This document shows positions 1 to 64,000 of a DNA stretch of 64,000 bases, piece after piece; the first letter of the stretch is position 1, and the number at the start of each line of letters is the position of its first letter. This DNA is from Eledone cirrhosa (Eukaryota), in assembly GCA_964016885.1 (NCBI GenBank), contig OZ024745.1, forward strand, positions 66,216,001 through 66,280,000, given 5' to 3'. Made by a program: the position numbers and the translations under genes. Below the pieces are notes generated by a model. That model was not told where the DNA came from. It worked only from the letters and a program-made list of their open reading frames with translations, and made no database searches.

Positions 1-3000
1 GGTGGTAATGATGTTGGTGGTATTGTGATCACTGGTAGTGGTGGTGGTGGTGGTAATGACGTTGGTGGTATTGTGCTCACTGGTAGTGGTGGTGGTGGTG
101 GTAATGATGTTGGTGGTATTGTGATCACTGGTAGTGGTGGTGGTGGTGGTAATGACGTTGGTGGTATTGTGCTCACTGGTAGTGGTGGTGGTGGTGGTGG
201 TGGTGGTAATGACGTTGCTGGTATTGTGCTCACTGGTAGTGGTGGTGGTGGTAATGACGTTGGTGGTATTGTGCTCACTGGTAGTGGTGGTGGTGGTGGT
301 AATGACGTTGGTGGTATTGTGCTCACTGTTAGTGGTGGTGGTGGTGGTGGTAATGACGTTGGTGGTATTGTGCTCACTGGTAGTGGTGGTGGTGGTGGTA
401 ATGACGTTGGTGGTATTGTGCTCACTGGTAGTGGTGGTGGTGGTGGTAATGACGTTGGTGGTATTGTGATCACTGGTAGTGGTGGTGGTGGTGGTAATGA
501 CGTTGGTGGTATTGTGCTCACTGGTAGTGGTGGTGGTGGTGGTAATGACGTTGCTGGTATTGTGCTCACTGGTAGTGGTGGTAATGACGTTGGTGGTATT
601 GTGCTCACTGGTAGTGGTGGTGGTAGTGGTGGTAATGACGTTGGTGGTATTGTGCTCACTGGTAGTGGTGGTGGTGGTGGTGGTAATAACGTTGGTGGTA
701 TTGTGCTCACTCATAGTGGTGGTGGTGGTGGTAATGACGTTGGTGGTATTGTGCTCACTGGTAGTGGTGGTGGTGGTGGTGGTAATGACGTTGGTGGTAT
801 TGTGCTCACTGGTAGTGGTGGTGGTGGTGGTAATGACGTTGGTGGTATTGTGCTCACTGGTAGTGGTGGTGGTGGTGGTAATGACGTTGGTGGTATTGTG
901 CTCACTGGTAGTGGTGGTGGTGGTGGTGGTAATGACGTTAGTGGTATTGTGCTCACTGGTAGTGGTGGTGGTGGTGGTGGTAATGACGTTGGTGGTATTG
1001 TGCTCACTGGTAGTGGTGGTGGTGGTGGTGGTAATGACGTTGGTGGTATTGTGCTCACTGGTAGTGGTGGTGGTGGTGGTAATGACGTTGGTGGTATTGT
1101 GCTCACTGGTAGTGGTGGTGGTGGTGGTAATGACGTTGGTGGTATTGTGCTCACTGGTAGTGGTGGTGGTGGTGGTAATGACGTTGGTGGTATTGTGCTC
1201 ACTGGTAGTAGTGGTGGTGGTGGTGGTAATGACGTTGGTGGTATTGTGATCACTGGTAGTGGTGGTGGTGGTGGTAATGACGTTGGTGGTATTGTGCTCA
1301 CTGGTAGTGGCGGTGGTGGTGGTGGTAATGACGTTGCTGGTATTGTGCTCACTGGTAGTGGTGGTAATGACGTTGGTGGTATTGTGCTCACTGGTAGTGG
1401 TGGTGGTGGTGGTAATGACGTTGGTGGTATTGTGCTCACTGGTAGTGGTGGTGGTGGTGGTAATGACGTTGGTGGTATTGTGCTCACTGGTGGTGGTGGT
1501 GGTAATGACGTTGGTGGTATTGTGCTCACTGGTAGTGGTGGTGGTGGTGGTAATGACGTTGGTGGTATTGTGCTCACTGGTAGTGGTGGTGGTGGTAATG
1601 ACGTTGGTGGTATTGTGCTCACTGGTAGTGGTGGTGGTGGTGGTAATGACGTTGGTGGTATTGTGCTCACTGGTAGTGGTGGTGGTGGTGGTGGTAATGA
1701 CGTTGGTGGTATTGTGCTCACGGGTAGTGGTGGTGGTGGTGGTAATGACGTTGGTGGTATTGTGCTCACTGGTAGTGGTGGTGGTGGTAATGACGTTGGT
1801 GGTATTGTGCTCACTGGTAGTGGTGGTGGTGGTGGTGGTAATGACGTTGGTGGTATTGTGCTCACTGGTAGTGGTGGTGGTGGTGGTAATGACGTTGGTG
1901 GTATTGTGCTCACTGGTAGTGGTGGTAATGACGTTGGAGGTATTGTGCTCACTGGTAGTGGTGGTGGTGGTGGTGGTAATGACGTTGGTGGTATTGTGCT
2001 CACTGGTAGTGGTGGTGGTGGTGGTGGTAATGACGTTGGTGGTATTGTGATCACTGGTAGTGGTGGGGGTGGTAATGACGTTGGTGGTATTGTGCTCACT
2101 GGTAGTGGTGGTGGTGGTGGTAATGACGTTGGTGGTATTGTGCTCACTGGTAGTGGTGGTAATGACGTTGGTGGTATTGTGCTCAGTGGTAGTGGTGGCG
2201 GTGGTAATGACGTTGGTGGTATTTTGCTCACTGGTAGTGGTGGTGGTGGTGGTGGTAATGACGTTGCTGGTATTGTGATCACTGGTAGTGGTGGTCGTGG
2301 TAATGACGTTGGTGGTATTATGCTCACTGGTAGTGGTGGTAATGGTGGTAATGACGTTGGTGGTATTGTGCTCACTGGTAGTGGTGGTGGTGGTAATGAC
2401 GTTGCTGGTATTGTGCTCACTGTTAGTGGTGGTAATGGTGGTAATGACGTTGGTGGTATTGTGCTCACTGGTAGTGGTGGTGGGGGTGGTAATGACGTTG
2501 GTGGTATTGTGCTCACTGGTAGTGGTGGTAATGGTGGTAATGACGTTGGTGGTATTGTGCTCAGTGGTAGTGGTGGTGGTCGTGGTAATGACGTTGGTGG
2601 TATTGTGCTCACTGGTAGTGGTGGTGGTGGTGGTGGTAATGACGTTGCTGGTATTGTGATCACTGGTAGTGGTGGTGGTCGTGGTAATGACGTTGGGGGT
2701 ATTGTGCTCACTGGTAGTGGTGGTAATGGTGGTAATGACGTTGGTGGTATTGTGCTCACTGGTAGTGGTGGTGGTGGTGGTAATGACGTTGGTGGTATTG
2801 TGCTCACTGGTAGTGGTGGTGGTGGTGGTAATGACGTTGGTGGTATTGTGCTCAGTGGTGGTGGTGGTGGTGGTGGTAATGACGTTGCTGGTATTGTGCT
2901 CACTGTTAGTGGTGGTAATGGTGGTAATGACGTTGGTGGTATTGTGCTCACTGGTAGTGGTGGTAATGGTGGTAATGACGTTGGTGTTATTGTGCTCACT

Positions 3001-6000
3001 GGTAGTGGTGGTAATGACGTTGGTGGTATTGTGCTCACTGGTAGTGGTGGTGTTGGTGGTAATGACGCTGGTGGTATTGTGCCCAGTGGTGGTGGTGGTG
3101 GTAATGACGTTGGTGATACTGTGATCACTGGTAGTGGTAATGGTGGTAATGACGTTGGTGGTATTGTGCTCACTGGTAGTGGTGGTGGTGGTAATGACGT
3201 TGGTGGTATTGTGCTCACTGGTGGTGGTGGTGGTGGTAATGACGTTGGTGGTATTGTGCTCACTGGTAGTGGTGGTGGTGGTGGTAATGACGTTGGTGGT
3301 ATTGTGCTCACTGGTAGTGGTGGTGGTGGTAATGACGTTGGTGGTATTGTGCTAAATGGTAGTGGTGGTGGTGGTGGTAATGACGTTGGGGGTATTGTAC
3401 TCACTGGTAGTGGTGGTGGTGGTGGTAATGACGTTGGGGGTATTGTACTCACTGGTAGTGGTGGTGGTGGTGGTAATGACGTTGGTGGTATTGTGCTCAC
3501 TGGTGGTGGTGGTGGTGGTGGTAATGACGCTGGTGTTATTGTGCTCACTGGTAGTAGTGGTGGTGGTGGTATTGACGTTGGTGGTATTGTGCTCACTGGT
3601 AGTAGTGGTGGTGGTGGTAATGACGTTGGTGGTATTGTGCTCACTGGTAGTGGTGGTGGTGGTGGTATTGACGTTGGTGGTATTGTGCTCACTGGTAGTA
3701 GTGGTGGTGGTGGTAATGACGTTGGTGGTATTGTGCTCACTGGTAGTAGTGGTGGTGGTGGTATTGACGTTGGTGGTATTGTGCTCACTGGTAGTGGTGG
3801 TGGTGGTGGTAATGACGTTGGTGGTATTGTGCTCACTGGTAGTGGTGGTGGTGGTGGTAATGACGTTGGTGTTATTGTGCTCAGTGGTAGTGGTGGTGGT
3901 GGTGGTAATGACGTTGGTGGTATTGTGCTCACTGGTAGTGGTGGTGGTGGTAATGACGTTGGTGGTATTGTGCTCACTGGTAGTGGTGGTGGTGGTAATG
4001 ACGTTGGTGGTATTGTGCTCACTGGTAGTGGTGGTGGTAATGACGTTGGTGTTATTGTGCTCAGTGGTAGTGGTGGTGGTAGTGGTAATGACGTTGGTGG
4101 TATTGTGCTCACTGGTAGTGGTGGTGTTGGTAATGACGTTGGTGGTATTGTGCTCACTGGTAGTGGTGGTGGTGGTAATGACGTTGGTGGTATTGTGCTC
4201 ACCGGTAGTGGTGGTGGTAATGACGTTGGTGTTATTGTGCTCAGTGGTAGTGGTGGTGGTGGTGGTAATGACGTTGGTGGTATTGTGCTCACTGGTAGTG
4301 GTGGTGGTGGTGGTAATGACGTTGGAGGTATTGTGCTCACTGGTAGTGGTGGTGGTGTTGGTAATGACGTTGGTGGTATTGTGCTCACTGGTAGTGGTGG
4401 TAGTGGTAATGACGTTGGAGGTATTGTGCTCACTGGTAGTGGTGGTGGTGGTGGTAATGACGTTGGTGGTATTGTGCTCACTGGTAGTGGTGGTGGTGGT
4501 GGTGGTAATGACGTTGGTGGTATTGTGCTCACTGGTAGTGGTGGTGGTGTTGGTAATGACGTTGGTGGTATTGTGCTCACTGGTAGTGGTGGTGGTGGTG
4601 GTGGTAATGACGTTGGTGGTATTGTGCTCACTGGTAGTGGTGGTGGTGGTGGTAATGATGTTGGTGGTATTGTGACCACTGGTAGTGGTGGTGGTGGTGG
4701 TAATGACGTTGGTGGTATTGTGCTCACTGGTAGTGGTGGTGGTGGTGGTAATGATGTTGGTGGTATTGTGATCACTGGTAGTGGTGGTGGTGGTGGTAAT
4801 GACGTTGGTGGTATTGTGCTCACTGGTAGTGGTGGTGGTGGTGGTGGTGGTGGTAATGACGTTGCTGGTATTGTGCTCACTGGTAGTGGTGGTGGTGGTA
4901 ATGACGTTGGTGGTATTGTGCTCACTGGTAGTGGTGGTGGTGGTGGTAATGACGTTGGTGGTATTGTGCTCACTGTTAGTGGTGGTGGTGGTGGTGGTAA
5001 TGACGTTGGTGGTATTGTGCTCACTGGTAGTGGTGGTGGTGGTGGTAATGACGTTGGTGGTATTGTGCTCACTGGTAGTGGTGGTGGTGGTGGTAATGAC
5101 GTTGGTGGTATTGTGATCACTGGTAGTGGTGGTGGTGGTGGTAATGACGTTGGTGGTATTGTGCTCACTGGTAGTGGTGGTGGTGGTGGTAATGACGTTG
5201 CTGGTATTGTGCTCACTGGTAGTGGTGGTAATGACGTTGGTGGTATTGTGCTCACTGGTAGTGGTGGTGGTAGTGGTGGTAATGACGTTGGTGGTATTGT
5301 GCTCACTGGTAGTGGTGGTGGTGGTGGTGGTAATGACGTTGGTGGTATTGTGCTCACTGGTAGTGGTGGTGGTGGTGGTAATGACGTTGGTGGTATTGTG
5401 CTCACTGGTAGTGGTGGTGGTGGTGGTGGTAATGACGTTGGTGGTATTGTGCTCACTGGTAGTGGTGGTGGTGGTGGTAATGACGTTGGTGGTATTGTGC
5501 TCACTGGTAGTGGTGGTGGTGGTGGTAATGACGTTGGTGGTATTGTGCTCACTGGTAGTGGTGGTGGTGGTGGTGGTAATGACGTTGGTGGTATTGTGCT
5601 CACTGGTAGTGGTGGTGGTGGTGGTGGTAATGACGTTGGTGGTATTGTGCTCACTGGTAGTGGTGGTGGTGGTGGTGGTAATGACGTTGGTGGTATTGTG
5701 CTCACTGGTAGTGGTGGTGGTGGTGGTAATGACGTTGGTGGTATTGTGCTCACTGGTAGTGGTGGTGGTGGTGGTAATGACGTTGGTGGTATTGTGCTCA
5801 CTGGTAGTGGTGGTGGTGGTGGTAATGACGTTGGTGGTATTGTGCTCACTGGTAGTAGTGGTGGTGGTGGTGGTAATGACGTTGGTGGTATTGTGATCAC
5901 TGGTAGTGGTGGTGGTGGTGGTAATGACGTTGGTGGTATTGTGCTCACTGGTAGTGGCGGTGGTGGTGGTGGTAATGACGTTGCTGGTATTGTGCTCACT

Positions 6001-9000
6001 GGTAGTGGTGGTAATGACGTTGGTGGTATTGTGCTCACTGGTAGTGGTGGTGGTGGTGGTAATGACGTTGGTGGTATTGTGCTCACTGGTAGTGGTGGTG
6101 GTGGTGGTAATGACGTTGGTGGTATTGTGCTCATGGTGGTGGTGGTGGTAATGACGTTGGTGGTATTGTGCTCACTGGTAGTGGTGGTGGTGGTGGTAAT
6201 GACGTTGGTGGTATTGTGCTCACTGGTAGTTGTGGTGGTGGTAATGACGTTGGTGGTATTGTGCTCACTGGTAGTGGTGGTGGTGGTGGTAATGACGTTG
6301 GTGGTATTGTGCTCACTGGTAGTGGTGGTGGTGGTGGTGGTAATGACGTTGGTGGTATTGTGCTCACTGGTAGTGGTGGTGGTGGTGGTAATGACGTTGG
6401 TGGTATTGTGCTCACTGGTAGTGGTGGTGGTGGTAATGACGTTGGTGGTATTGTGCTCACTGGTAGTGGTGGTGGTGGTGGTGGTAATGACGTTGGTGGT
6501 ATTGTGCTCACTGGTAGTGGTGGTGGTGGTGGTAATGACGTTGGTGGTATTGTGCTCACTGGTAGTGGTGGTAATGACGTTGGAGGTATTGTGCTCACTG
6601 GTAGTGGTGGTGGTGGTGGTGGTAATGACGTTGGTGGTATTGTGCTCACTGGTAGTGGTGGTGGTGGTGGTGGTAATGACGTTGGTGGTATTGTGATCAC
6701 TGGTAGTGGTGGGGGTGGTAATGACGTTGGTGGTATTGTGCTCACTGGTAGTGGTGGTGGTGGTGGTAATGACGTTGGTGGTATTGTGCTCACTGGTAGT
6801 GGTGGTAATGACGTTGGTGGTATTGTGCTCAGTGGTAGTGGTGGCGGTGGTAATGACGTTGGTGGTATTTTGCTCACTGGTAGTGGTGGTGGTGGTGGTG
6901 GTAATGACGTTGCTGGTATTGTGATCATTGGTAGTGGTGGTGGTGGTCGTGGTAATGACGTTGGTGGTATTATGCTCACTGGTAGTGGTGGTAATGGTGG
7001 TAATGACGTTGGTGGTATTGTGCTCACTGGTAGTGGTGGTGGTGGTAATGACGTTGCTGGTATTGTGCTCACTGTTAGTGGTGGTAATGGTGGTAATGAC
7101 GTTGGTGGTATTGTGCTCACTGGTAGTGGTGGTGGGGGTGGTAATGACGTTGGTGGTATTGTGCTCACTGGTAGTGGTGGTAATGGTGGTAATGACGTTG
7201 GTGGTATTGTGCTCAGTGGTAGTGGTGGTGGTCGTGGTAATGACGTTGGTGGTATTGTGCTCACTGGTAGTGGTGGTGGTGGTGGTGGTAATGACGTTGC
7301 TGGTATTGTGATCACTGGTAGTGGTGGTGGTCGTGGTAATGACGTTGGGGGTATTGTGCTCACTGGTAGTGGTGGTAATGGTGGTAATGACGTTGGTGGT
7401 ATTGTGCTCACTGGTAGTGGTGGTGGTGGTGGTAATGACGTTGGTGGTATTGTGCTCACTGGTAGTGGTGGTGGTGGTGGTAATGACGTTGGTGGTATTG
7501 TGCTCAGTGGTGGTGGTGGTGGTGGTGGTAATGACGTTGCTGGTATTGTGCTCACTGTTAGTGGTGGTAATGGTGGTAATGACGTTGGTGGTATTGTGCT
7601 CACTGGTAGTGGTGGTAATGGTGGTAATGACGTTGGTGGTATTGTGCTCACTGGTAGTGGTGGTAATGACGTTGGTGGTATTGTGCTCACTGGTAGTGGT
7701 GGTGTTGGTGGTAATGACGCTGGTGGTATTGTGCCCAGTGGTGGTGGTGGTGGTAATGACGTTGGTGATACTGTGATCACTGGTAGTGGTAATGGTGGTA
7801 ATGACGTTGGTGGTATTGTGCTCACTGGTAGTGGTGGTGGTGGTAATGACGTTGGTGGTATTGTGCTCACTGGTGGTGGTGGTGGTGGTAATGACGTTGG
7901 TGGTATTGTGCTCACTGGTAGTGGTGGTGGTGGTGGTAATGACGTTGGTGGTATTGTGCTCACTGGTAGTGGTGGTGGTGGTGGTAATGACGTTGGTGGT
8001 ATTGTGCTAAATGGTAGTGGTGGTGGTGGTGGTAATGACGTTGGGGGTATTGTACTCACTGGTAGTGGTGGTGGTGGTGGTAATGACGTTGGGGGTATTG
8101 TACTCACTGGTAGTGGTGGTGGTGGTGGTAATGACGTTGGTGGTATTGTGCTCACTGGTGGTGGTGGTGGTGGTGGTAATGACGCTGGTGTTATTGTGCT
8201 CACTGGTAGTAGTGGTGGTGGTGGTATTGACGTTGGTGGTATTGTGCTCACTGGTAGTAGTGGTGGTGGTATTGTGCTCACTGGTAGTGGTGGTGGTGGT
8301 GGTATTGACGTTGGTGGTATTGTGCTCACTGGTAGTAGTGGTGGTGGTGGTAATGACGTTGGTGGTATTGTGCTCACTGGTAGTAGTGGTGGTGGTGGTA
8401 TTGACGTTGGTGGTATTGTGCTCACTGGTAGTGGTGGTGGTGGTGGTTGTAATGACGTTGGTGGTATTGTGCTCACTGGTAGTGGTGGTGGTGGTGGTGG
8501 TAATGACGTTGGTGGTATTGTGCTCACTGGTAGTGGTGGTGGTGGTGGTGGTAATGACGTTGGTGGTATTGTGCTCAGTGGTGGTGATGGTGGTGGTGGT
8601 GGTAAAGACGTTGGTGGTATTGTGCTCACTGGTAGTGGTGGTGGTGGTGGTAATGACGTTGGTGGTATTGTGCTCACTGGTAGTGGTGGTGGTGGTAATG
8701 ACGTTGGTGGTATTGTGCTCACTGGTAGTGGTGGTGGTGGTGGTGGTAATGACGTTGGTGGTATTGTGCTCACTGGTAGTGGTGGTGGTGGTGGTGGTAA
8801 TGACGTTGGTGGTATTGTGCTCACTGGTAGTTGTGGTGGTGGTAATGACGTTGCTGGTATTGTGCTAAATGGTAGTGGTGGTGGTGGTAATGACGTTGGT
8901 GGTATTGTGCTCACTGGTAGTGGTGGTGGTGGTAATGACGTTGGTGGTATTGTGCTCAGTGGTGGTGGTGGTGGTGGTGGTAATGACGTTGGTGGTATTT

Positions 9001-39514: not shown

Positions 39515-39852
39515 GAGGCATATGGCTTAGCGGTTAGAGCATTGGGCTTGCAATCAAAAGGTTGTGAGTTCAATTCTCACTCTGGGTGATGTGTTGTTTC
39601 CTTGAGCAAGACACTTTATTTCACATTGCTCCAGTTTACTCACCTGTAAAAATGAGATGATAGGACTGTAGTCCATATCATTCCACTGTGAAATGGACGT
39701 GTAGGCGCCACAGAAAAAAAGTACCAGCACTCACTGTTAATGAGGTTGGTGTTAGGAAGGGCATCCAGCTGTAGAAATCAAGCCAGAATCAGTTCCCATC
39801 CCACCCTTGCAAGCAGGGTAAAGCAGATGTAAAATGATGATGATGATGATGA

Positions 39853-40455: not shown

Positions 40456-40698
40456 ATTCCTTTTAACTAAACTGTATCCATTCAAATCCTTCTATTTTTC
40501 TCCGGATTACTTTTGGAACTACAACTGGAACCGTCGAGCAAACTCTACGTGAGCTGTCCATCTACTGTGTGTAATATTTATATTACAACACTACGGAAAA
40601 TACTGTATATATATATATACTCTAGTAAAAGTTTGGTAGAAATATCCAAGGGTAAGAGCACTCAGTCCATAGGATGAGGTAAGTATAATTAGTTATAC

Positions 40699-40748
40699 AC
40701 AGGTACTTAAGTTTCGTTGGGTTATACACCCCAACTCATTCAGCCTGT
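40699..40748 (-). ncRNA. Type I hammerhead ribozyme-like motif with one extra core base
   Basis: Minus strand: ACAGG CTGAATGA GTTGGG-gtgtataa-CCCAAC GAAAC TTAA GTA CCTGT. All stems pair and stem III carries the palindrome ACTTAAGT. Confidence 0.7.
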
Positions 40749-42716: not shown

Positions 42717-44277
42717 ATCATCATCATCACCGTTTTACGTCTGTTCTTCCATGCTAGCATGGGTTAGACGGGTTGTCTTGTTGTGGGCAGTGTCTGGTCG
42801 GCTGACCATGTCTTGCTCATACAGGAACTAATTTTGGCTTGATTTCTACAGCTGGATGCCCTTCCTAACACCAACCTCATTTACAGTGAGTGCTGGGTGC
42901 TTTTTTGCCGTGGCACCTCCACGACCACTTTGCAGTGGGAGGGTGTGGGGGCATATTGTCTATATGCTTCAGCTTGTACCCATGGGAGGTCGGGTACTCT
43001 GTATTACTGCGTGGCGCCAGAGGTCACGGTCGTATGTCATCGCCTTTGAGAGGTGTAATTGGGTAAGGTCGGCTTTTATCACCTCATCCCAGGTCTTCTT
43101 GGGTCGCCCCACTCCGCGGTTTCCATTGACTTCTAGTGCTCTGCACCTTTTTATGCAGCTGTCATCCTTCATACGCATCACATGTCGATACCAACACAAC
43201 CGCCTCTCCTGCACACAGCATTTGATTCCTCTTATGCTCAGTCTCTCTCTCAATTCATTTATGCTTTGCTGTTCACGTATATTACTATTACACATCCATC
43301 GGAGCATGCAGGCTTCGTTTCTTTCTAATCTACATAAGTCTTCCACCTTCAGCGCCCAGGTCTCACTACCATGTAACACTGCTGTTCGGATACACGCATC
43401 ATACAGTCTGCCTTTCATTTTGAGGGAGAAGTCTTTTGCAGCTAGCAGTGGCAGTAGTTCCCTGAACTTCTTCCATCCTGTTCTTACCCTAGTTATTGTA
43501 CTTTCTGAACACCCACCACCGTTGCTAATTCGGTCACCTAGGTAGCAGAAGCTGTCTACTGTTTCTACAGAGCCCTCCCAGAGATTGGTGGTACTTGTTT
43601 CCTGTGGCTGTTTACTGCTTGCTGTCCCAGCATAGCTGCTACATGTGAAGCCTACATTCTTAATTAAGCTTCCTGAGATCCCGCTACATCTCTTGTGTAC
43701 CCATTGTTTGCATTTTGGGCAGAGAATGGAGTTCCTACCTACACCTTTCCTACATACTGAGCAAGGCCATTTCCCTGAGGGGATCTGGGTTCTGTTTTCT
43801 CGTCTACTTACAAGGACCTTAGTCTTTGTCATATTGACTTTGAGACCCTTTCTTTCTAGTCCCTGCTTCCAAGTTTGGAATTTCTTCTCTAGTTCTACCA
43901 TAGATTCAGCTATAAGTGCAAGGTCATCTGCATACAGGAGTTCCCATGGGCATCCGGTCTTAAACTCCTCCGTTATTGCCTGCAGGACTATGATGAACAG
44001 GAGAGGGCTAAGAACAGAGCCCTGGTGGACACCAACCTGTACGCTAAATTCCTCACTATACTCATTGCTAATCCTAACTTTGCTGACTGCTCCCCTATAC
44101 ATGGCTTGTAGAGCTTTCACAAGCCATTCATCTACTCCTAGTTTTCTAAGAGCCCACCAGATTATAGCACGTTGAACTCTGTCAAAGGCTTTCTCGAGAT
44201 CGACGAATGCCAGGTAGAGTGGCTTACTTTTAGCTAGGTACTTTTCCTGTAACTGCCCCACAAGGAAGAGGGCATTA
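42717..44277 (-). mobile_element. 5'-truncated RTE-clade LINE with 3' UTR and (GAT)n tail
   Basis: Contains the RT ORF below, a 3' UTR at 42730-42968 and an (ATC)n run at 42717-42729. The 5' end is truncated into (TA)n at ~44280. Confidence 0.93.
42969..44277 (-). CDS. Reverse transcriptase (C-terminal part) with PHD-like Cys/His insert; N-terminally truncated
   Basis: AFVDLEKAFDRV, GVHQGSVLSPLLF, LLYADDLAL, GLKVNMTKTK, CSVCRKGVGRNSILCPKCKQWVHKRC, FCYLGD, LHGSETW, GRPKKTW. The first ~17 residues of the ORF-track entry come from microsatellite. Confidence 0.9.
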
Positions 44278-44446
44278 TTGGTATATATATATATATATAT
44301 ATATATGTATGCATGTATGTATACACACACATATATATGGATGTACCATTCGAGAAAATATAAAACTATGCATCAGTGAGATCCAGAGACCCCAGCCTCT
44401 CTGGAAGGTTGGTAGTCTCTCTTCAATACCGACTTGGTTTATATAG

Positions 44447-56485: not shown

Positions 56486-57250
56486 TTTGTTTACATGGTA
56501 TAATGTTGAAAGTGTGACTATATCAATTAAAAATTGTTATTTAGTTTATAGTTTTGATTCATGGCGTAAAGTTTAAGTAGGAAGTGTACACAATAAAATG
56601 TTTTGTATATATTTCAAAATTCTGATTTGATTTAATGGGAATGTTTAGAATTATTGTGGCCTATAATATATCAATAATAATCAGATTAGTTCAACAGCTT
56701 ATATTTATGAGAAATTTGAAATAAATTCAACTCATAGCTGTATGACAAGTTTAAAACATCAAAATAGAGAAATAGAATGGCAAGTCTATTATTCATCATC
56801 TAACCAATGAAGTAAATTTTCCTATTTACTGTTGCCATTGAATTTGATTATTGTAATTTGCTTAATTTAAAATGCACTGAACATCAAACTATTGTCAATC
56901 ATTCTCTCAATTTATCGTTATTTAAAAATTTCTCCTTTGTTGGATGCTGTGTTTTGGAAGAGATCTAAATTGAAATTACTCAACAAAACATAGTGGAAGC
57001 ACACATTGCCACTAGGTAACCCCTCAATTGAACTTAAACAACCAGCTGTTGATAATGCTTAAAGGCAGTATACTACTATGGTATAAAGCATTTAGCATAA
57101 GGCCCCCCAAAAAATGCATGGCCTGTAGCATATGCTACTCGTGCTATTAGACTAATCAGGTACTGGCAAAAATATGCATTCTCTCTCTCTCTCTATATAT
57201 ATATATATACGATATTAATAAATGGAAACTATATTTATAAAACCATATTT

Positions 57251-57313
57251 ATTTCATTATACATATTTCAGGGATACCAAATTAAATTATGATATGCCTT
57301 CATCAGACAAAAT
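57251..57313 (-). ncRNA. Type I hammerhead-like motif (diverged relative of the 60.8-61.0 kb family)
   Basis: Minus strand: ATTTTGT CTGATGA AGGcATATCA...TGGTATCCCT GAAA TATGT ATA ATGAAAT. Flank 57211-57250 matches 60756-60795 and lies next to (TA)n. Confidence 0.6.
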
Positions 57314-57631
57314 GCAATATATAACAGTTTTACAAATAAGCTTTGACGTACCCTTTTAAAATGCAACCATTATTTTTGGAAGCCATCTGGATAGTGAATT
57401 GTTTATATTATTTTAATAAGTCTTAGTGTTAAGGACAATTAGAAAAAGACGGAGAGAAAGAAAAAAGAAAAAAACGTGGAGAAATATCGGAGAGAGAGAA
57501 ATGCATGGAGAAAAAAGAGAGAGATAAATAAAGACAGGAGGAAAGAAAGAAAAAAGAAAAAAAGAGTGCTTTATATCAGTTATAAAAATATTTACTTGTT
57601 GTATCCCAACAATTTTAAATAGAACTTTTGC

Positions 57632-57667
<36 letters not shown>

Positions 57668-57738
57668 ATATAAGTATATATGTATATATTTATATATATA
57701 TTTAATATAGTATATATATATATATTTAATATAGAAAT

Positions 57739-57789
57739 GGCTTCTACAGGACTAGAACTGTTTCATTCAGGAGAAATCATCAGGAAGCC
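57739..57789 (-). ncRNA. Type I hammerhead-like motif standing almost alone within (TA)n
   Basis: Minus strand: GGCTTC CTGATGA tTTC-tcct-GAAt GAAAC AG-ttctagtc-CT GTA GAAGCC. Canonical core, 6-bp stem I, GUA site. Confidence 0.75.
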
Positions 57790-58326
57790 CATTATATATA
57801 TATATATAATGGCTGCATCTCTGTTTTGAGAATTTCTATCTCTTGACTTTTTTCTCATACAAGGGTGATATGAACATGACATTTTAACCCTGCCAAGGAC
57901 TTAGATATCTTTTTGCATATGCTGCAGTGAAAACCAAAGTGAAAAAGCCATCCTTTCACCAACCACTTTAACGTATATACTGGTGGATGCTTTTATCATG
58001 TAGATCACCAACTATAGGGAGGTTGTCATGCCATTGTCACAACTAAAGCTTCCTTTCAACACTTTTAGACATGCCTTTCCTTTCCCCACCCATATTACAG
58101 GGTGTACCAGAAGCATTTTCATGGCATCAACACTAGATGGCATTGAGCATGAATTCATATAATTAATAGCTACAAGTATATCATCTTCTGCCCTTAATTT
58201 TTATACGTGTCTGTAATTGAATTCTAGCGATTGAAGAATTTATTTGAATTATATCCTAATCATCAAATATTGATCTAAACCCTTATTATACACACATACA
58301 CACAACACACACATTATATATATATA

Positions 58327-58381
<55 letters not shown>

Positions 58382-58564
58382 GTTATATAGTAAGTTGTAT
58401 TATTGGTTGTGTCATACGGTCCAATAAACTTTTGTTAGCAATATTAAGTTCTCCATGCTTTTGTATATCTCCAATTCCATCCGAGGGAACAGCTAGATGA
58501 TGTAAAACTGAGTATAAGTATCAAAATGAAAATCCGAAGGCAAGGTAAAATTCCAATCATTTAA

Positions 58565-58638
58565 TCACGACACATGTTTCAATAAGAGATAGATCGATTG
58601 TGAAGCCATGATCGATTGTCACTGATCTCATCAGGTGA
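58565..58638 (-). ncRNA. Type I hammerhead-like motif in a ~350-bp (TA)n-flanked insert (58379-58729)
   Basis: Minus strand: TCAC CTGATGA GAT...ATT GAAAC ATGT GTC GTGA. Canonical core; stem II is imperfect. Confidence 0.6.
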
Positions 58639-59373
58639 AAATGAATTGTCTTCAAATTCTTGATATGAGGGAGAAAAAATAACGATGTTCTCTCACAGAA
58701 TTCATTCCCTCATATGGAGACACCATATGATATATATATATATATATATATACAATATATTTAGAAACACACAGATTCATGCGGACACACACATATACAT
58801 GAATGCATCCACACCAAACCGTGAGTTAAGGGTGCCAACCTCACCGATGTTGCTCAATGAATGACTGGGACAGACCAATCCGGTTGAACCAGACTGAACC
58901 AGTAATACGCACATATATGTTGGTTAAGTTAATGGGTAAGTTTTAGAGTCGTTTGTTTAAAACGTTGGTCAAAATTTTAGTTAGATATCATTTAATATTT
59001 GTGGAGTTATCAGTTTGGTAAGAAGGATAAGATTTGGATTACGCAATTTGTTGATTGAGCAGATAGTTTATTTTGATTCATATTCAGTACAGATATTTAG
59101 GCAGACATATTTTTGGTGACTGTGCTGATTCAGTATGGCTGCAATGTCAATTACATAATAAGGTGGTGATCACTGCAGAGAAATAGAGAACCTATAAAAT
59201 TAAACATACAAATAATTAGTATAGGGTAGGTAGTATTATGCTGAGTGTGCTGTGGTTTGGTTTTGAAGGGTATGATTGGTTTTATTTTTATGACTTGTTT
59301 GATATGTATCTGGTAGGTAAGGCTGCATGTATTTTTATATATTGTGCTGTCCTGAGTTCAAGTTAAGGCAATT

Positions 59374-59445
<72 letters not shown>

Positions 59446-59451
<6 letters not shown>

Positions 59452-59913
59452 AATGAATAATAACAGGTAGACATCATAAAAAGGTAATTTATTCTGTGTG
59501 CTTACAAATGTGTCCACGGTGGTTATACAGCCTAGTTATGCTATGTGCAAATTTAAAACTATTTGCAAAACTCAATTATCAAATGCTGTGACCACTGTAT
59601 CATCAGAGCAGAATGGTTAAAATGTACAGCATTTGATAATTGAGTTTTGCAAATAGTTATAAATTTGCACATAGCATAACTAGGCTGTATAACCACCGTG
59701 GAAACATTTGTAAGCACACACAATAAATTACCTTTTTATGATGTCTACCTGTTATTGTTCATTCTTTATCTACACTCCCGAATACAGAAGGATCAGGAAC
59801 TGAGTTTCTTCAAATATTCTTTCATAACTCGTTGAGTAACCTCTCACCGTACGTCAACTCTATCCAGTGTAGTAATTAACCATTACTGCATCCAGGATAA
59901 TCCTATACCTAAT
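59446..59913. mobile_element. Penelope-like insert with 144-bp inverted arms (59446-59589 / 59626-59769), in (TA)n
   Basis: Near-identical reverse-complement arms with a hammerhead-like motif spanning the left arm and spacer. Confidence 0.65.
59499..59610 (-). ncRNA. Hammerhead-like motif (GAAA mutated to GACA in this arm)
   Basis: Minus strand: TGCT CTGATGA TACAGTGGT...ACCACCGTG GACAC ATTT GTA AGCA. The opposite arm keeps GAAACATTTGTAAGCA (59701-59716) but lacks the CTGATGA half. Confidence 0.55.
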
Positions 59914-59926
59914 ATATATATATATA

Positions 59927-60489
59927 TGGAAAAGAATGAAATGAAATTTCATTTCTCAATCTTAGTACGGCTGATACTTAAATGTAAGTATGTATACGTA
60001 CATACATATATGTATACAGACGTACAGTAGTATGTATATATATATATATATACATACAGGCACACATATATATATGTACGTATGGGTTTACCGAACATTT
60101 ATTATAATGTTCGTTTTTTTTGTAAACAAACAGCCCGAATTAAGCCGTACAGTGTTTGGCAACCATCGTTGTCCTTTTGTTCAATACTGACAAAGGAACG
60201 ATGAACTAGTTTCAAGCTTATTAGCTATCGTCAGCATCGTATACCTTCCTGTCAGATGATTGAACGTTTGAAAGTATATACTTTCCTTATGCATATTAAC
60301 GGCTGAGCAGCCTAATTTGCATATCGAGTGAGTTAGTCGGCCGGGCGTACCGAAAACGATAAATGGAAAAGAATGAAATGAAATTTCATTTCTCACTCTT
60401 AGTACGGCTGATACTTAAATGTAAATATGTATACGTACATACATATATGTATACAGACGTACAGTATTATGTATATATATACGTACAGG

Positions 60490-60524
<35 letters not shown>

Positions 60525-60699
60525 GTATGGGTTTACTGAACACTGTACGGCTTAATTCAGGCTGCTTGTTTACAAACAAACCGAACATTATAATAAATGT
60601 TCGGTAAACGTATACGTACATATATATGTGTGCCTGTATGTATATATATACATACTACTGTACATCTGTATACATATATGTATGTACGTATACATACTT

Positions 60700-60700
<1 letters not shown>
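59927..60700. mobile_element. (TA)n-embedded insert with direct repeat (period 437 bp) plus inverted arm; pseudo-LTR-like architecture
   Basis: TGGAAAAGAATGAAATGAAATTTCATTTCTCA... at 59927 and 60364; 60539-60700 is the reverse complement of ~59985-60157. Confidence 0.55.
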
Positions 60701-60753
<53 letters not shown>

Positions 60754-60794
60754 ATGATATTAATAAATGGAAACTATATTTATAAAACCATATT

Positions 60795-60855
60795 TATTTT
60801 ATTATATATATTTCAAGGGTACCAAAATTTTGGTGTGCCCTCATCAGATAAAATA
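60795..60855 (-). ncRNA. Type I hammerhead-like motif
   Basis: Minus strand: TATTTTAT CTGATGA GGGcacACCAA-aatt-TTGGTACCCtt GAAAT ATAT ATA ATAAAATA. Confidence 0.7.
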
Positions 60856-60957
60856 CAAAATTTGTTTTATACTTGACATACTCAAGAAACCAGACCTTAC
60901 CTGGACCGATAAGGTCTGGTTTCTTGGGTTATGTTAATATTTATAAAACAAATTTTG

Positions 60958-61018
60958 TATTTTATCTGATGAGGGCGTACCAAAATGTTGGTACCCTTGA
61001 AATATATATAATAAAATA
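60958..61018 (+). ncRNA. Type I hammerhead-like motif
   Basis: TATTTTAT CTGATGA GGGcGTACCAA-aatg-TTGGTACCCtt GAAAT ATAT ATA ATAAAATA. 8-bp stem I, canonical core, AUA site. Confidence 0.75.
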
Positions 61019-61140
61019 AATATGGTTTTATAAATATAGTTTCCATTTATTAATATTATACTCCAGAAAACTTGTAGAGTGCTTCAAATCTGTTTAAAAT
61101 AAATTTGTTGAATAACCAAAAAATTAATTATCTCTTTGCT

Positions 61141-61188
<48 letters not shown>

Positions 61189-61305
61189 CAAACATATTTA
61201 TATATATGTATACAAAGGAAAACAGGGAGAGAGGGGGAGAAAGAAAAATTGAGAGAGAAAATATGAAATATTCTTTTTTAAATCTAGAACAATAGAAAAT
61301 TATAC

Positions 61306-61685
61306 ATCATCACCGTTTTACGTCTGTTCTTCCATGCTAACATAGGTTAGATCGGGAACTGATTCTGGCTTGATTTCTACAGCTGGATGCCCTTCTTAAA
61401 ACCAACCTCATTTACAGTGAGTTCTGGATGATATTGTTTACTTGGCGCCTGCCTATACGTCCACTTTACAGTGTGGGCTGAGTGTTTTTTTGCCGTGGCA
61501 CCTCCACGACCAGTTTGCAGTGGAATGATAAGGACCCCAGACCTATCATCTATAGCTGAGTAAAGTGGAGCAATGTGAAATAAAGTGTCTTGTTCAAGAA
61601 AACAACACATCACCCGGTCTGAGAATTGAACTCACAACCTTTCGATTGCAAGGCCAATGCTCTAACCACTAAGCCATGTGCCTCC
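61306..61685 (-). mobile_element. SINE family A, full length, alternative tail
   Basis: Head and body match 55312-55650; the extreme 3' end matches the LINE tail at 42730-42772. Confidence 0.88.
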
Positions 61686-61814
61686 ATATATATATATATA
61701 TGTATAAATATTTCGTATCTCCAAGGAAATACGGTTTTAGGAAGCCGTAGCTATGCAAATACCGGGGGGGGGGCTAACGACCTCTGGTGATGTCCAGCAG
61801 AAGCAAGAGAGACA

Positions 61815-61858
61815 ACCGTCTATGCAGTTCAGGCTTAACTGGCCTTTGTCAGGACGGT
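61815..61858 (-). ncRNA. Degenerate hammerhead copy (core CTGACAA, GAAC)
   Basis: Minus strand: ACCGTC CTGACAA AGGC-cagttaa-GCCT GAAC TGCATA GACGGT; two core substitutions. Confidence 0.45.
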
Positions 61859-62076
61859 CCCTCCCACCGCTTGCGACTGCTGGACTAGAAGACAGGCGAG
61901 AAAATATACTTTTCTCGTCTGTGTAAATGAAGCGAAATCCTATTTCTTCTTATTATAAGTTGAGCCAACTTATGCAGCTTCATATGCAAGTGAGATTAAT
62001 CACCTCATTTTCACAGATGAGAAAAGTATATTTTCTCGCCTGTCTTCTAGTCCAGCAGTCGAAAGCAGTGGGAGGG

Positions 62077-62120
62077 ACTGTCCTGACGAAGGCCAGTTAA
62101 GCCTGAAATGCATAGACGGT
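62077..62120 (+). ncRNA. Minimal type I hammerhead-like motif
   Basis: ACTGTC CTGACGA AGGC-cagttaa-GCCT GAAA TGCATA GACGGT. Palindromic ATGCAT in place of a stable stem III. Confidence 0.75.
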
Positions 62121-62280
62121 TGTCCTCCTTGCGTCTGCTGGACATCACCAGAGGGCGTTAGCCTCCCTCCTCCCCCGGTATTTCCATAGCTACGGCTTCC
62201 TGAAACCGTATTTCCTTGGAGATACAAAATATTTATACATATTGTATAAAGCTATGCTTGAAGCGAAATCATATTTCTTT

Positions 62281-62301
62281 TATATACATATATATATATA
62301 C

Positions 62302-62343
<42 letters not shown>

Positions 62344-62453
62344 ATATATATATATATATATGTATATATAATATATATATATATATGTATATATAATATA
62401 TATATATATATGTATATATAAATATATAATATATATATAAAATATATATATAT

Positions 62454-62496
<43 letters not shown>

Positions 62497-62497
62497 T
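62281..62497. repeat. Imperfect (TA)n microsatellite
   Basis: Directly visible; other long (TA)n tracts at 39858-39900, 57620-57730, 58315-58378, 59378-59447, 60702-60750 and 62830-62886. Confidence 0.95.
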
Positions 62498-62827
62498 ACA
62501 GAGTACCCGACCTCCCATGGGTACAAGCTGAAGCATATAAACAATATGCCCCCGCACCCCCCACTGCAAGGTGGTCGTGGAGGTGCCACGGCAAAAAAGC
62601 ACCCAGCCCACACTGTAAAGTGGACGTGTAGGCGCCACGAAAAAGCACCCAGCACTCACTGTAAATGAGGTTGGTGTTAGGAAGGGCATCCAACTGTAGA
62701 AATCAAGCCAGATCAGTTCCTGTATGAGCAAGGCATGGTCAGTCGACCAGACACTGCACACAAGAGGACAACCCGTCTAATCCATGCTAGCGTGGAAGAA
62801 CGGACGTAAAACGGTGATGATGATGAT
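62498..62827 (+). mobile_element. 3' end of the same RTE LINE family as 42717-44277
   Basis: ACAGAGTACCCGACCTCCCATGGGTACAAGCTGA (QSTRPPMGTS*) plus 3' UTR and (GAT)n; carries one more internal UTR repeat than the 42.7-kb copy. Confidence 0.9.
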
Positions 62828-62830
62828 ATG

Positions 62831-62898
<68 letters not shown>

Positions 62899-64000
62899 TA
62901 AAATAATATATAATTGGTATTTTGTGTGTTTGAAGTAGGTTTTATATCCCACACTTCTATTTACTTATTCATAATTTGGATAGAAAGATGGAAATATATC
63001 CTGCAGGCTACTGTATTTTTAAGGGGTGAAGCCAAACAAGATATCCCTTACGGGGATTTATAGACATTATAATTAAACAAAATTTTTTCTTCTCCTGCTT
63101 TTGTTCTCCTCATCCCCTTCTCCCTCCTTCTTTTTTATAATAATAAGAGGAAAGGTTATGATGGTTAATCAATGCTGCCTGCCCATTTCATACTAGAGTG
63201 ATAGCCAAAAATGTGAGAAAAATAGAAGTTTAACAATACCTGAAATAGGAAAAACAGATAATGTGGCATTATCACAAAGTTGTTATAATCCAAATTGAAA
63301 TAGGAGGCACAAGGACAGTAGAGAGAAGTTTGAATATCTGGTTAAAGATGTTAGATGCAGAGGTGGATTTTCTGACTTTACAGAAAGTTTGTTTTTTTTG
63401 GCATAATAAAACTACAAGAAAGGTGCTAGATAGTTAAGGTTGCAAGAGACAGTTTGATATTTAACTATCCAAATGCTGAAAGAAGAGTGCATGCAGGATA
63501 GTTTCCTTACCTTGTCTGCATCTCAGAGATCCAGCAGATAGCACTTCCATAACTGTAAGGTTTATCCTAAACTAGAAATTCTCTCTGTTAGCACTACCAG
63601 GCCAGATATTTCTGGAAAGTATTCATGGTTGAAAATTCTAGTCAATTGATTTTTGTCAATGTATAAAATTGCTCTGATAACATCAGCACTTTTACCCATA
63701 GCATAATGAAGTGGAATTTTCATTGACTATATTGCCTGACTGAGAGAGAACTGTGAACACCTGAAGACATTACAGTTGGTATTGAACTCCACAATTATCA
63801 TTTGACTCCAAACTGCAGCTTGGTCAAAGAAACAAACTGGAATCACATTTTACAAATAGTGAACACATTTACTTTCAAAGAAATGCAGGGCATGTCACAT
63901 CTTCTGTGCATGACTACATATCATTAGTCATAACATGTCTAGTCCTCCACACAATGGCTGTTGACAGCAATTGAATTACTTGATCTGTGGAATGTGTGCC

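Follow-up and report, generated by a model that had tools for sequence, protein, structure and literature searches.

The closest described relatives of the DNA considered here, a 64,000-nt stretch of the Eledone cirrhosa genome (contig OZ024745.1, positions 66,216,001 to 66,280,000; "the window" in the following, with position 1 as its first letter) in which hammerhead ribozyme motifs crowd into the region 57200-62300, are Penelope-like elements (PLEs) and retrozymes. Non-LTR (long terminal repeat) retrozymes of animals were reportedly described by Cervera and de la Pena in 2020. Minimal hammerheads (min-HHR) have been characterized from the flanking repeats of metazoan PLEs (Cervera and de la Pena, 2014; PMC4209133), and the accessible parts of that paper ascribe to them a long helix II with a highly conserved G10.1-C11.1 closing pair, a short helix I and a palindromic helix III, as well as an arrangement in opposite-strand pairs 100-700 bp apart. 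Most copies are reported to be truncated PLEs, 2,000-9,000 motifs are quoted per genome, and it was proposed that a circular or multimeric template is copied more than once round (PMC4209133). Among the PLEs with a C-terminal endonuclease (EN+), the Hydra clade is characterized, in the accessible text of Craig, Yushenova, Rodriguez and Arkhipova (2021; PMC8557442), by DKT in place of DKG, by RWK, by a CxCX5C motif and by the loss of CCHH, and additionally by readily found hammerheads and insertion into (TA)n. Animal non-LTR retrozymes are also the subject of a recent preprint (Li, Clavereau and Pollet, 2026; 10.64898/2026.07.22.740005).

Compared with these systems, the region 57200-62300 is very probably a nest of 3′-terminal PLE pieces and of short PLE-type or retrozyme-like units, which carry minimal type-I hammerheads and were most likely inserted by target-primed reverse transcription (TPRT) into (TA)n microsatellite tracts. 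What is found here is the known association of minimal hammerheads with PLEs and retrozymes, in new families. A striking pattern is in this way explained as ordinary transposon biology and is not to be chased as a new ribozyme system.

Motifs were searched with a type-I hammerhead descriptor consisting of CUGANGA, a helix II with 3 or more bp and a mismatch allowed at the first pair, GAAA, a U followed by H (not G) and a helix I with 5 or more bp, with helix III left unconstrained; positions quoted as single numbers denote C3 of the core. Six sites in the window matched, all of them between 57306 and 62083, namely 57306(-), 57783(-), 60234(-), 60847(-), 60966(+), and 62083(+). The conserved core (C3-U-G-A-N-G-A9, G12-A-A14, A15.1...U16.1, H17 not G) is present at all six. 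Against these six sites in 5101 bases, 300 dinucleotide shuffles of 57200-62300 gave a mean and a maximum of 0, and the region contains 8 CUGANGA boxes on both strands together compared with a mean of 1.4 in the shuffles. No descriptor site was found in the remaining 28 kb of non-satellite window, in the reversed window or in the 20 kb downstream of it. A chance origin of the motifs is ruled out by the fact that the dinucleotide shuffles give none; the hammerhead motifs are real and far above chance. An earlier note on this DNA, which had named equal density in shuffled sequence as evidence against its own reading, is in this respect confirmed. All eight positions it listed for the region are readable motifs, with each of its numbers falling at the 3′ end of stem I or at the start of the motif. 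The layout of core and stems it described applies fully to five of the eight, which pass the descriptor, but is imperfect at 58634(-), 59606(-), and 61852(-). The last of these is the motif it had called degenerate (61815), and indeed reads CUGACAA and GAAC. A ninth motif, 60234(-), was missing from its list and passes the descriptor, and the number of families, given there as five, is six in our count. In keeping with the reported lack of reverse transcriptase (RT) or GIY-YIG coding sequence nearby, no stop-free frame of at least 150 aa is present within 57200-62250. The inserts of the region and their motifs are as follows.

57216..57330 (-): 5′-truncated tail of a diverged family A subfamily, 92% homology to 60739-60826; its 3′ end adjoins (TA)n at 57194-57215
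57251-57313 (-): family A hammerhead, CUGAUGA 57306-57300, GAAA 57269-57266, predicted cleavage after A57258
57736..57793 (-): family C stub of ~58 nt, almost solely hammerhead (57739-57789), with a 4-bp hairpin as helix III and a helix II that opens with a U-U mismatch; (TA)n on both sides
58381..58727 (-): family E, 5′-truncated copy; (TA)n on both sides
~58557-58644 (-): family E hammerhead-like motif, CUGAUGA 58634-58628, GAAA 58580-58577, helix III ACAUGUGU, C58569 as H17; narrowly fails the descriptor with a helix I of 4 bp, a 2-nt bulge and 6 bp, and an A9-G12 gap of 47 nt
59443..59772 (both strands): palindrome I2, two head-to-head copies of the sixth family, 147-nt arms, 97% complementary
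59625-59443 (-): I2 minus copy, CUGAUGA 59606-59600, 85-nt helix II, GACA 59514-59511 in place of GAAA (some relatives have GAAA), helix III ACAUUUGU, helix I of 4 bp ending at 59499
59626-59772 (+): I2 plus arm, truncated ahead of the CUGAUGA box
59922..60654 (both strands): family D complex, direct-repeat spacing of 437 and an inverted repeat
60521-59922 (-): family D minus part, ~1.4 units of a ~430-437-nt unit, with one hammerhead
60198-60240 (-): family D hammerhead, CUGACGA 60234-60228, GAAA 60213-60210, helix III ACUAGU, predicted cleavage after U60204
~60539-60654 (+): family D inverted, truncated tail
60754..61135 (both strands): palindrome I3, two head-to-head 5′-truncated family A tails, 118-nt arms, 97% complementary; (TA)n on both sides
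60754-60871 (-) and 60942-61059 (+): the two family A tails of I3
60795-60855 (-) and 60958-61018 (+): hammerheads of I3, predicted cleavage after A60803 and A61010
61056-61135: I3 extension of ~80 nt, common to many family A copies
61698..62280 (both strands): palindrome I1, two head-to-head family B copies
61928-62250: right copy of I1, followed by ~30 nt of the next unit
62076-62121 (+): intact hammerhead of the right I1 copy, CUGACGA 62083-62089, GAAA 62105-62108, helix III AUGCAU, predicted cleavage after A62114
61814-61859 (-): degenerate motif of the left I1 copy, CUGACAA and GAAC

Six families carry the motifs of the region, and each of them is present at high copy number. The counts below are first-look candidates in the animal's own 3.0-Gb genome and represent lower bounds, with the best 40 copies scored per family.

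Family A (60966+, 60847-, 57306-): at least 1399 candidates, copies 97-99% identical
Family B (62083+, 61852-): at least 2084 candidates, about 90-92% identical
Family C (57783-): at least 951 candidates, 95-100% identical
Family D (60234-): at least 2693 candidates, 96-97% identical
Family E (58634-): at least 1392 candidates, 99-100% identical over 201 nt
Family I2, the sixth (59606-): at least 1235 candidates, up to 99% identical

The copies of these families end in a similar manner. Family A has a constant A/T-rich 3′ end that runs into (TA)n, while its 5′ ends vary between copies; in families B and E, too, the 3′ end is fixed and lies in (TA)n, at one of two alternative points in each family, and the 5′ ends vary. 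Copies of family C are stubs of 57-65 nt that contain barely more than the hammerhead and are often arranged head to head. Constant 3′ ends, ragged 5′ ends and high copy number support the earlier proposal that the motif-bearing pieces are parts of Penelope-kind retroelements adjoining (TA)n. The accompanying statement that each insert is bounded by (TA)n holds for the 3′ end of every insert, but for both sides only of most. Runs of (TA)n of at least 6 units make up 7.5% of the region, compared with 4.1% of the genome sample described below and 0.8% of the rest of the window, an enrichment that fits a target-site explanation for the nest. Target duplications are unreadable within (TA)n. An extension of ~80 nt after the family A 3′ end was observed in roughly half of the copies seen, and was found inverted at the 5′ side in at least one of them (L009).

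That the motifs represent folded hammerheads is supported, independently of the descriptor, by the pairing within family A and by the form of helix III. Copies were collected by the tail alone, and those of sufficient length were selected by a word upstream of the motif, which yielded a set of 66 out of 78 distinct copies after 12 had been dropped as truncated. In this set 95.3% of helix cells are paired, compared with 36-57% after sliding of the 3′ partner. Double changes affect three pairs of helix II (G-C to A-U, U-A to C-G, and A-U to G-C) in 19 cells, a count reached by none of 500 shuffles, whereas the variation in helix I is limited to wobble. The pairing of helix II in family A is consequently kept through double changes, so that stem covariation among family copies, the lack of which would have spoken against the earlier note, is present. 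The 21 homologous copies of family B hardly vary and are too uniform for pairing statistics. Across 25 distinct motif types from the window and from 38 random loci, helix III (15.1-16.1) is fully self-complementary in 13, and at least 7 of the other 12 are readable as short helix III hairpins when the list is read by eye.

Family A could be followed beyond its tail. In all four extended loci, sequence common to the copies reaches at least 2.3 kb upstream and encodes an RT-like region with YRDD, then a CNCRx5C linker and then a GIY-YIG-like block with one core Cys. One locus (L048) contains a 456-aa open frame that extends from the RT to a stop, running from YRDD through CNCR to the GIY-YIG-like block, with the linker CNCRDESNC and a single Cys in the nuclease core; a 445-aa frame at another locus (L051) carries the DKT motif. 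For the endonuclease (EN) open reading frame (ORF), 104,359 first-look candidates were obtained in the genome, an unverified lower-level count, and of 10 loci returned by the search with this ORF, 7 have an A-type tail on the same strand, 1.2-1.4 kb downstream. Homologues of about 700 aa were found in public data with E values of 1e-50 to 1e-65. Among 18 of them, RWK is present in 11, DKT in 17 and YRDD in all, and the CxC linker is followed in all 18 by a third Cys at a distance of five (17 homologues) or six residues. The ORFs of this genome itself, which are without the N-terminus, showed no RWK, and a search for longer (fused) homologues found none. In related proteins (atlas neighbours), RVT_1 and GIY-YIG occur in a minority of members. 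Judged by this sequence evidence, family A is the 3′ tail of a putative autonomous RT plus GIY-YIG PLE, the ORF of which lies ~1.3 kb upstream in full copies.

The candidate parent of family A shows the marks of the Hydra clade, namely DKT for DKG, RWK (from homologues), CxCX5C and a nuclease core without CCHH, and also its architecture, in that a hammerhead follows the ORF on its 3′ side and that copies are inserted into (TA)n and can be 5′-truncated, inverted or in partial tandem. It resembles the clade, as far as the accessible text of PMC8557442 describes it, in an apparent single ORF with the putative GIY-YIG nuclease C-terminal to the RT, in the DKT motif and the CxCX5C linker, in a GIY-YIG core without CCHH whose conserved E and N are surrounded by CxxC and CxH, in RWK in the homologues, in the hammerhead downstream, in its (TA)n insertion, and in its 5′ truncation, inverted copies and extension at one end. 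In contrast, the same text gives few families outside cnidarians and no very high copy numbers, compared with the 104,359 unverified first-look candidates obtained here; the 3′ untranslated region of the family A parent measures about 1.3 kb; and the ~80-nt extension of family A is longer than the 30-40 bp reported there for the PLE "tail" extension. The Hydra-clade assignment is a putative one, made from motifs rather than from a domain model or a tree.

Several resemblances to the min-HHR of PLEs, as described in the accessible parts of PMC4209133, concern the motifs themselves. The type-I layout of CUGANGA, GAAA and UH, the long helix II and the helix I of 4-8 bp are shared, and so is a short self-complementary helix III of the dimer type (AUAUAUAU, AUGCAU, ACUAGU). 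Also shared are the many consensus families per genome, the predominance of single truncated copies and the opposite-strand pairs 100-700 bp apart. Unlike in the described min-HHR, family C has a regular 4-bp helix III hairpin, and A9 and G12 are separated by 47-85 nt in families E and I2. Moreover, the ~1 motif per 10 kb seen in a 380-kb sample extrapolates far above the 2,000-9,000 per genome quoted there, although the descriptors differ and the two figures are not directly comparable.

A number of observations weigh against this reading of the region. Minimal PLE hammerheads are reported to cleave poorly in vitro (PMC4209133, accessible part). The Rfam search proposed in the earlier note returned no hammerhead model for the region, neither at gathering score, where the single hit was something else, nor at E<=10 on 56500-63000, where no hammerhead was among 100 hits; the weak matches in the region are hairpin microRNA families, triggered by the three long palindromes, and a tRNA-like short interspersed element (SINE). 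The Rfam hammerhead models miss this whole motif class. The closing pair of helix II is G-U in family A, A-U in family B and the diverged subfamily A′, and a U-U mismatch in families C and D, but never the G10.1-C11.1 pair (G-C) of the described min-HHR. The double changes of family A follow few subfamilies and consequently reflect few events. A mutated core was found in ~11 of the 66 family A copies (by-eye count) and in 4 of the 21 family B copies, and for this reason no constraint is visible on the genomic copies. From the predicted cleavage sites, the DNA copies continue for another 45-137 nt to their 3′ ends, so that the inserted templates would not be simple cleaved linear monomers.

Further points of this kind concern the coding side. 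Pfam found no family in the element's own ORFs from this genome, and in 19 aligned proteins it gave weak matches of GIY-YIG to 2 (best E 0.005) and of RVT_1 to 1, while a PDB sequence search with the 19-homologue profile yielded only chance matches to green fluorescent protein (E about 0.4). No ORF-bearing parent of families B, C, D, E, and I2 was found among the best 40 copies per family. In 30 loci around the best Pfam GIY-YIG matches (1.5-kb flanks), a descriptor-level minimal hammerhead was present in only two (L173 and L192), both unrelated; one family D copy, and no other copy of B, C, D, E or I2, occurs near one of these loci. The link to an autonomous Penelope element that the earlier note had asked for is hence available for family A, through its RT/GIY-YIG ORF, but did not emerge from these copies and loci for the other five families.

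Families B and D differ from family A in their organization. The family D unit (422-437 nt) lies at or above the size range of animal non-LTR retrozymes. It contains one hammerhead and is represented by ~1.4 units in 13 of 13 flanked loci, often with an inverted partner. The family B unit measures ~330 nt, again with one hammerhead, and its copies begin in the end of the previous unit or extend ~30 nt into the next one; on C1, three copies stand in tandem at about 330-nt spacing. Copies of both families span 1.0-1.4 units, and neither an ORF nor longer shared sequence was detected in 13 of 13 flanked loci of B and 13 of 13 of D. One of the random loci (L116, G000:C1:50599428-50609427) contains, at 3761-6900, facing family D arrays of 4 units on the minus and 5 units on the plus strand at 422-nt spacing. 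Going by their arrangement, these arrays could serve as a natural substrate on which hammerheads cleave as dimers. Tandem units without an ORF, a few hundred nt long and with a type-I hammerhead each, as expected of retrozymes, are thus found in both B and D, and these two families look like retrozyme-type non-autonomous units. The earlier description of the inserts as small non-autonomous elements consequently appears to fit at least families B and D, but not family A as the tail of an autonomous element.

This raises the possibility of true non-LTR retrozymes in the case of B and D, and perhaps also of C, E, and I2. Their tandems would be transcribed, the RNA would be cleaved by its own hammerheads and circularised, and a PLE RT would mobilise it in trans; these families would then be more than dead solo pseudo-LTRs of autonomous elements. 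We consider this explanation a serious contender to which we would give slightly less than an even chance; it would refine the reading as a nest of PLE-derived pieces and units and does not contradict it. In its favor are the unit sizes with one hammerhead each, the ORF-less copies of 1.0-1.4 units, the tandem copies of family B and the family D arrays of 5 and 4 units, the 96-97% identity of family D copies, and the fact that elements of this kind have already been described for animals (10.64898/2026.07.22.740005, accessible part). With the animal non-LTR retrozymes described so far, B and D share ORF-less units of a few hundred nt with one type-I hammerhead each, tandem arrays, copies of more than unit length and the coexistence with PLEs; unlike there, most copies seen here span 1.0-1.4 units and do not form long arrays. 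On the other hand, the absence of ORFs applies to the best 40 copies per family, beyond which ORF-bearing copies could exist, and partial tandems are also a normal form of autonomous PLE insertions (PMC8557442, accessible part).

The palindromes of the region allow another interpretation, in which the inserts would be foldback or MITE-type (miniature inverted-repeat transposable element) DNA transposons or plain hairpin repeats, with incidental hammerhead cores; their transcripts, if any, would be a source of long double-stranded RNA and small RNAs. Three near-perfect palindromes with 171-, 147- and 118-nt arms (91-97% complementary) are indeed present, and sub-threshold Rfam microRNA matches were obtained (MIR807, 72.7 bits vs 113; mir-5014, 65.5 vs 101). 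These matches are, however, all far below the gathering score. Among 30 family A loci, many contain single ~160-nt arms and others head-to-head pairs; the single arms share their 3′ end but differ at their ragged 5′ ends, so that a unit defined by terminal inverted repeats, with its ends, was not found. Since single-arm copies occur, the three palindromes of the window are pairs of 5′-truncated copies joined head to head and not units, and a DNA-transposon origin of family A is rejected. The arms moreover join at different truncation points, family A continues into the RT/GIY-YIG ORF, and unrelated families that differ in their helix sequences show the same hammerhead architecture. Taken together, this makes an origin as foldback or hairpin elements very unlikely.

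The unpaired motifs (57306, 57783, 58634, 59606, 60234, and 40699) are all located on the minus strand, as had been stated before; the common strand of these six single motifs might reflect a bias in orientation with respect to a host gene not seen here, or be a matter of chance (two-sided sign test ~0.03, hand arithmetic). Such a bias would fit host-selected ribozymes acting on a local host transcript, for instance by cutting intron RNA, with a functional cluster, yet this appears the least credible of all explanations and barely worth entertaining, given copies 92-100% identical to thousands of others, which indicates recent insertions rather than conserved sites, two mutated local cores (59606 and 61852), and the absence here of the partner copy that minimal hammerheads need.

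Returning to insertion by TPRT as the preferred reading, a sequence of steps can be proposed from what the accessible parts of PMC8557442 and PMC4209133 establish for PLEs. The GIY-YIG nuclease of an element would nick (TA)n, on which the A/U-rich 3′ end of the RNA would then prime, and early stops and strand switches would generate truncated and inverted copies. As every insert would leave (TA)n on both sides, the same tract could be hit repeatedly and fill up. In RNA of tandem source copies, two hammerheads may pair via their self-complementary helix III and cut out unit-length RNA, which may be circularised and copied more than once round, giving rise to copies of 1.3-1.4 units. The 3′ ends beyond the cleavage sites and the more-than-unit copies of B and D would fit such a circular or multimeric template, but both fit read-through of existing tandems equally well. 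Within the window no two same-strand copies of one family are arranged in tandem; copies are single or head to head and have no tandem partner, for which reason they are probably inert products rather than working ribozymes. The cutting of a host pre-mRNA and the release of small or circular RNAs, which the earlier note had considered possible, find no support here.

With regard to density, 38 random 10-kb stretches (380 kb) contained 36 descriptor sites, corresponding to 0.95 per 10 kb. At least one site was present in 18 of the 38 stretches, with 10 in the densest and 5 in the next. The six sites in 5.1 kb of the region amount to about 12 times the genome mean; its earlier designation as a hotspot is nevertheless a relative one, as the region remains within the range of the random stretches, one of the 38 being denser. 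The genome carries an unusually high load of hammerhead-bearing elements, among them an apparent Hydra-clade element at very high copy number. We tentatively put forward, as a possibility that we think rather improbable, that this genome underwent a very large and still recent burst of Hydra-clade PLEs together with retrozyme-like units, with on the order of 10^5 motifs (~1 per 10 kb) and families 97-100% identical, and that the 330-430-nt units were copied by the Hydra-clade enzyme from circular ribozyme-processed RNAs. If true, this would be the first natural system to link the Hydra clade to retrozymes, and a good test of rolling-circle reverse transcription. In any case, the very young families, with copies up to 100% identical, could be used to test the cutting by minimal hammerheads in vivo and circular RNA as template of the more-than-unit copies.

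Outside the region, one further hammerhead-like motif was noted.

40655-40745 (-): hammerhead-like motif (40699) with an 8-base first box CUGAAUGA, i.e., one extra core base, which departs from the conserved core

Its helix II is a perfect stem of 6 bp, and GAAA, a helix I and a self-complementary ACUUAAGU are present as well; the motif probably represents a seventh family or a core variant. The ORF at 42969-44372(-) was considered as its parent and rejected, as it is of the long interspersed element (LINE) type with RVT_1 and a PHD finger and not Penelope. It forms a 467-aa open frame (RVT_1 E 7e-23) and encodes a LINE-type RT with thousands of marine-invertebrate relatives; its best named matches came from a hydrozoan (56% identical) and from lancelets.

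In addition to these elements, the window contains a long satellite at ~1-29100 with a roughly 60-nt GGT-rich unit (GGTGGTAATGA[CT]GTTGGTGGTATTGTG...), in which frames without a stop reach up to 4033 codons and occur on both strands. Between two of the hammerhead inserts, the block at 57430-57570 is purine-rich (GA/A) and of low complexity, and contains a direct repeat with a spacing of 89 nt. Two tRNA-like pieces, at 39522-39581(+) and 61619-61676(-), score 41.8 and 28.1 bits with the Rfam tRNA model and resemble the heads of tRNA-derived SINEs. Finally, an inverted SINE-like pair (61451-61523 and 62561-62633, 93% complementary) encloses the family B palindrome.

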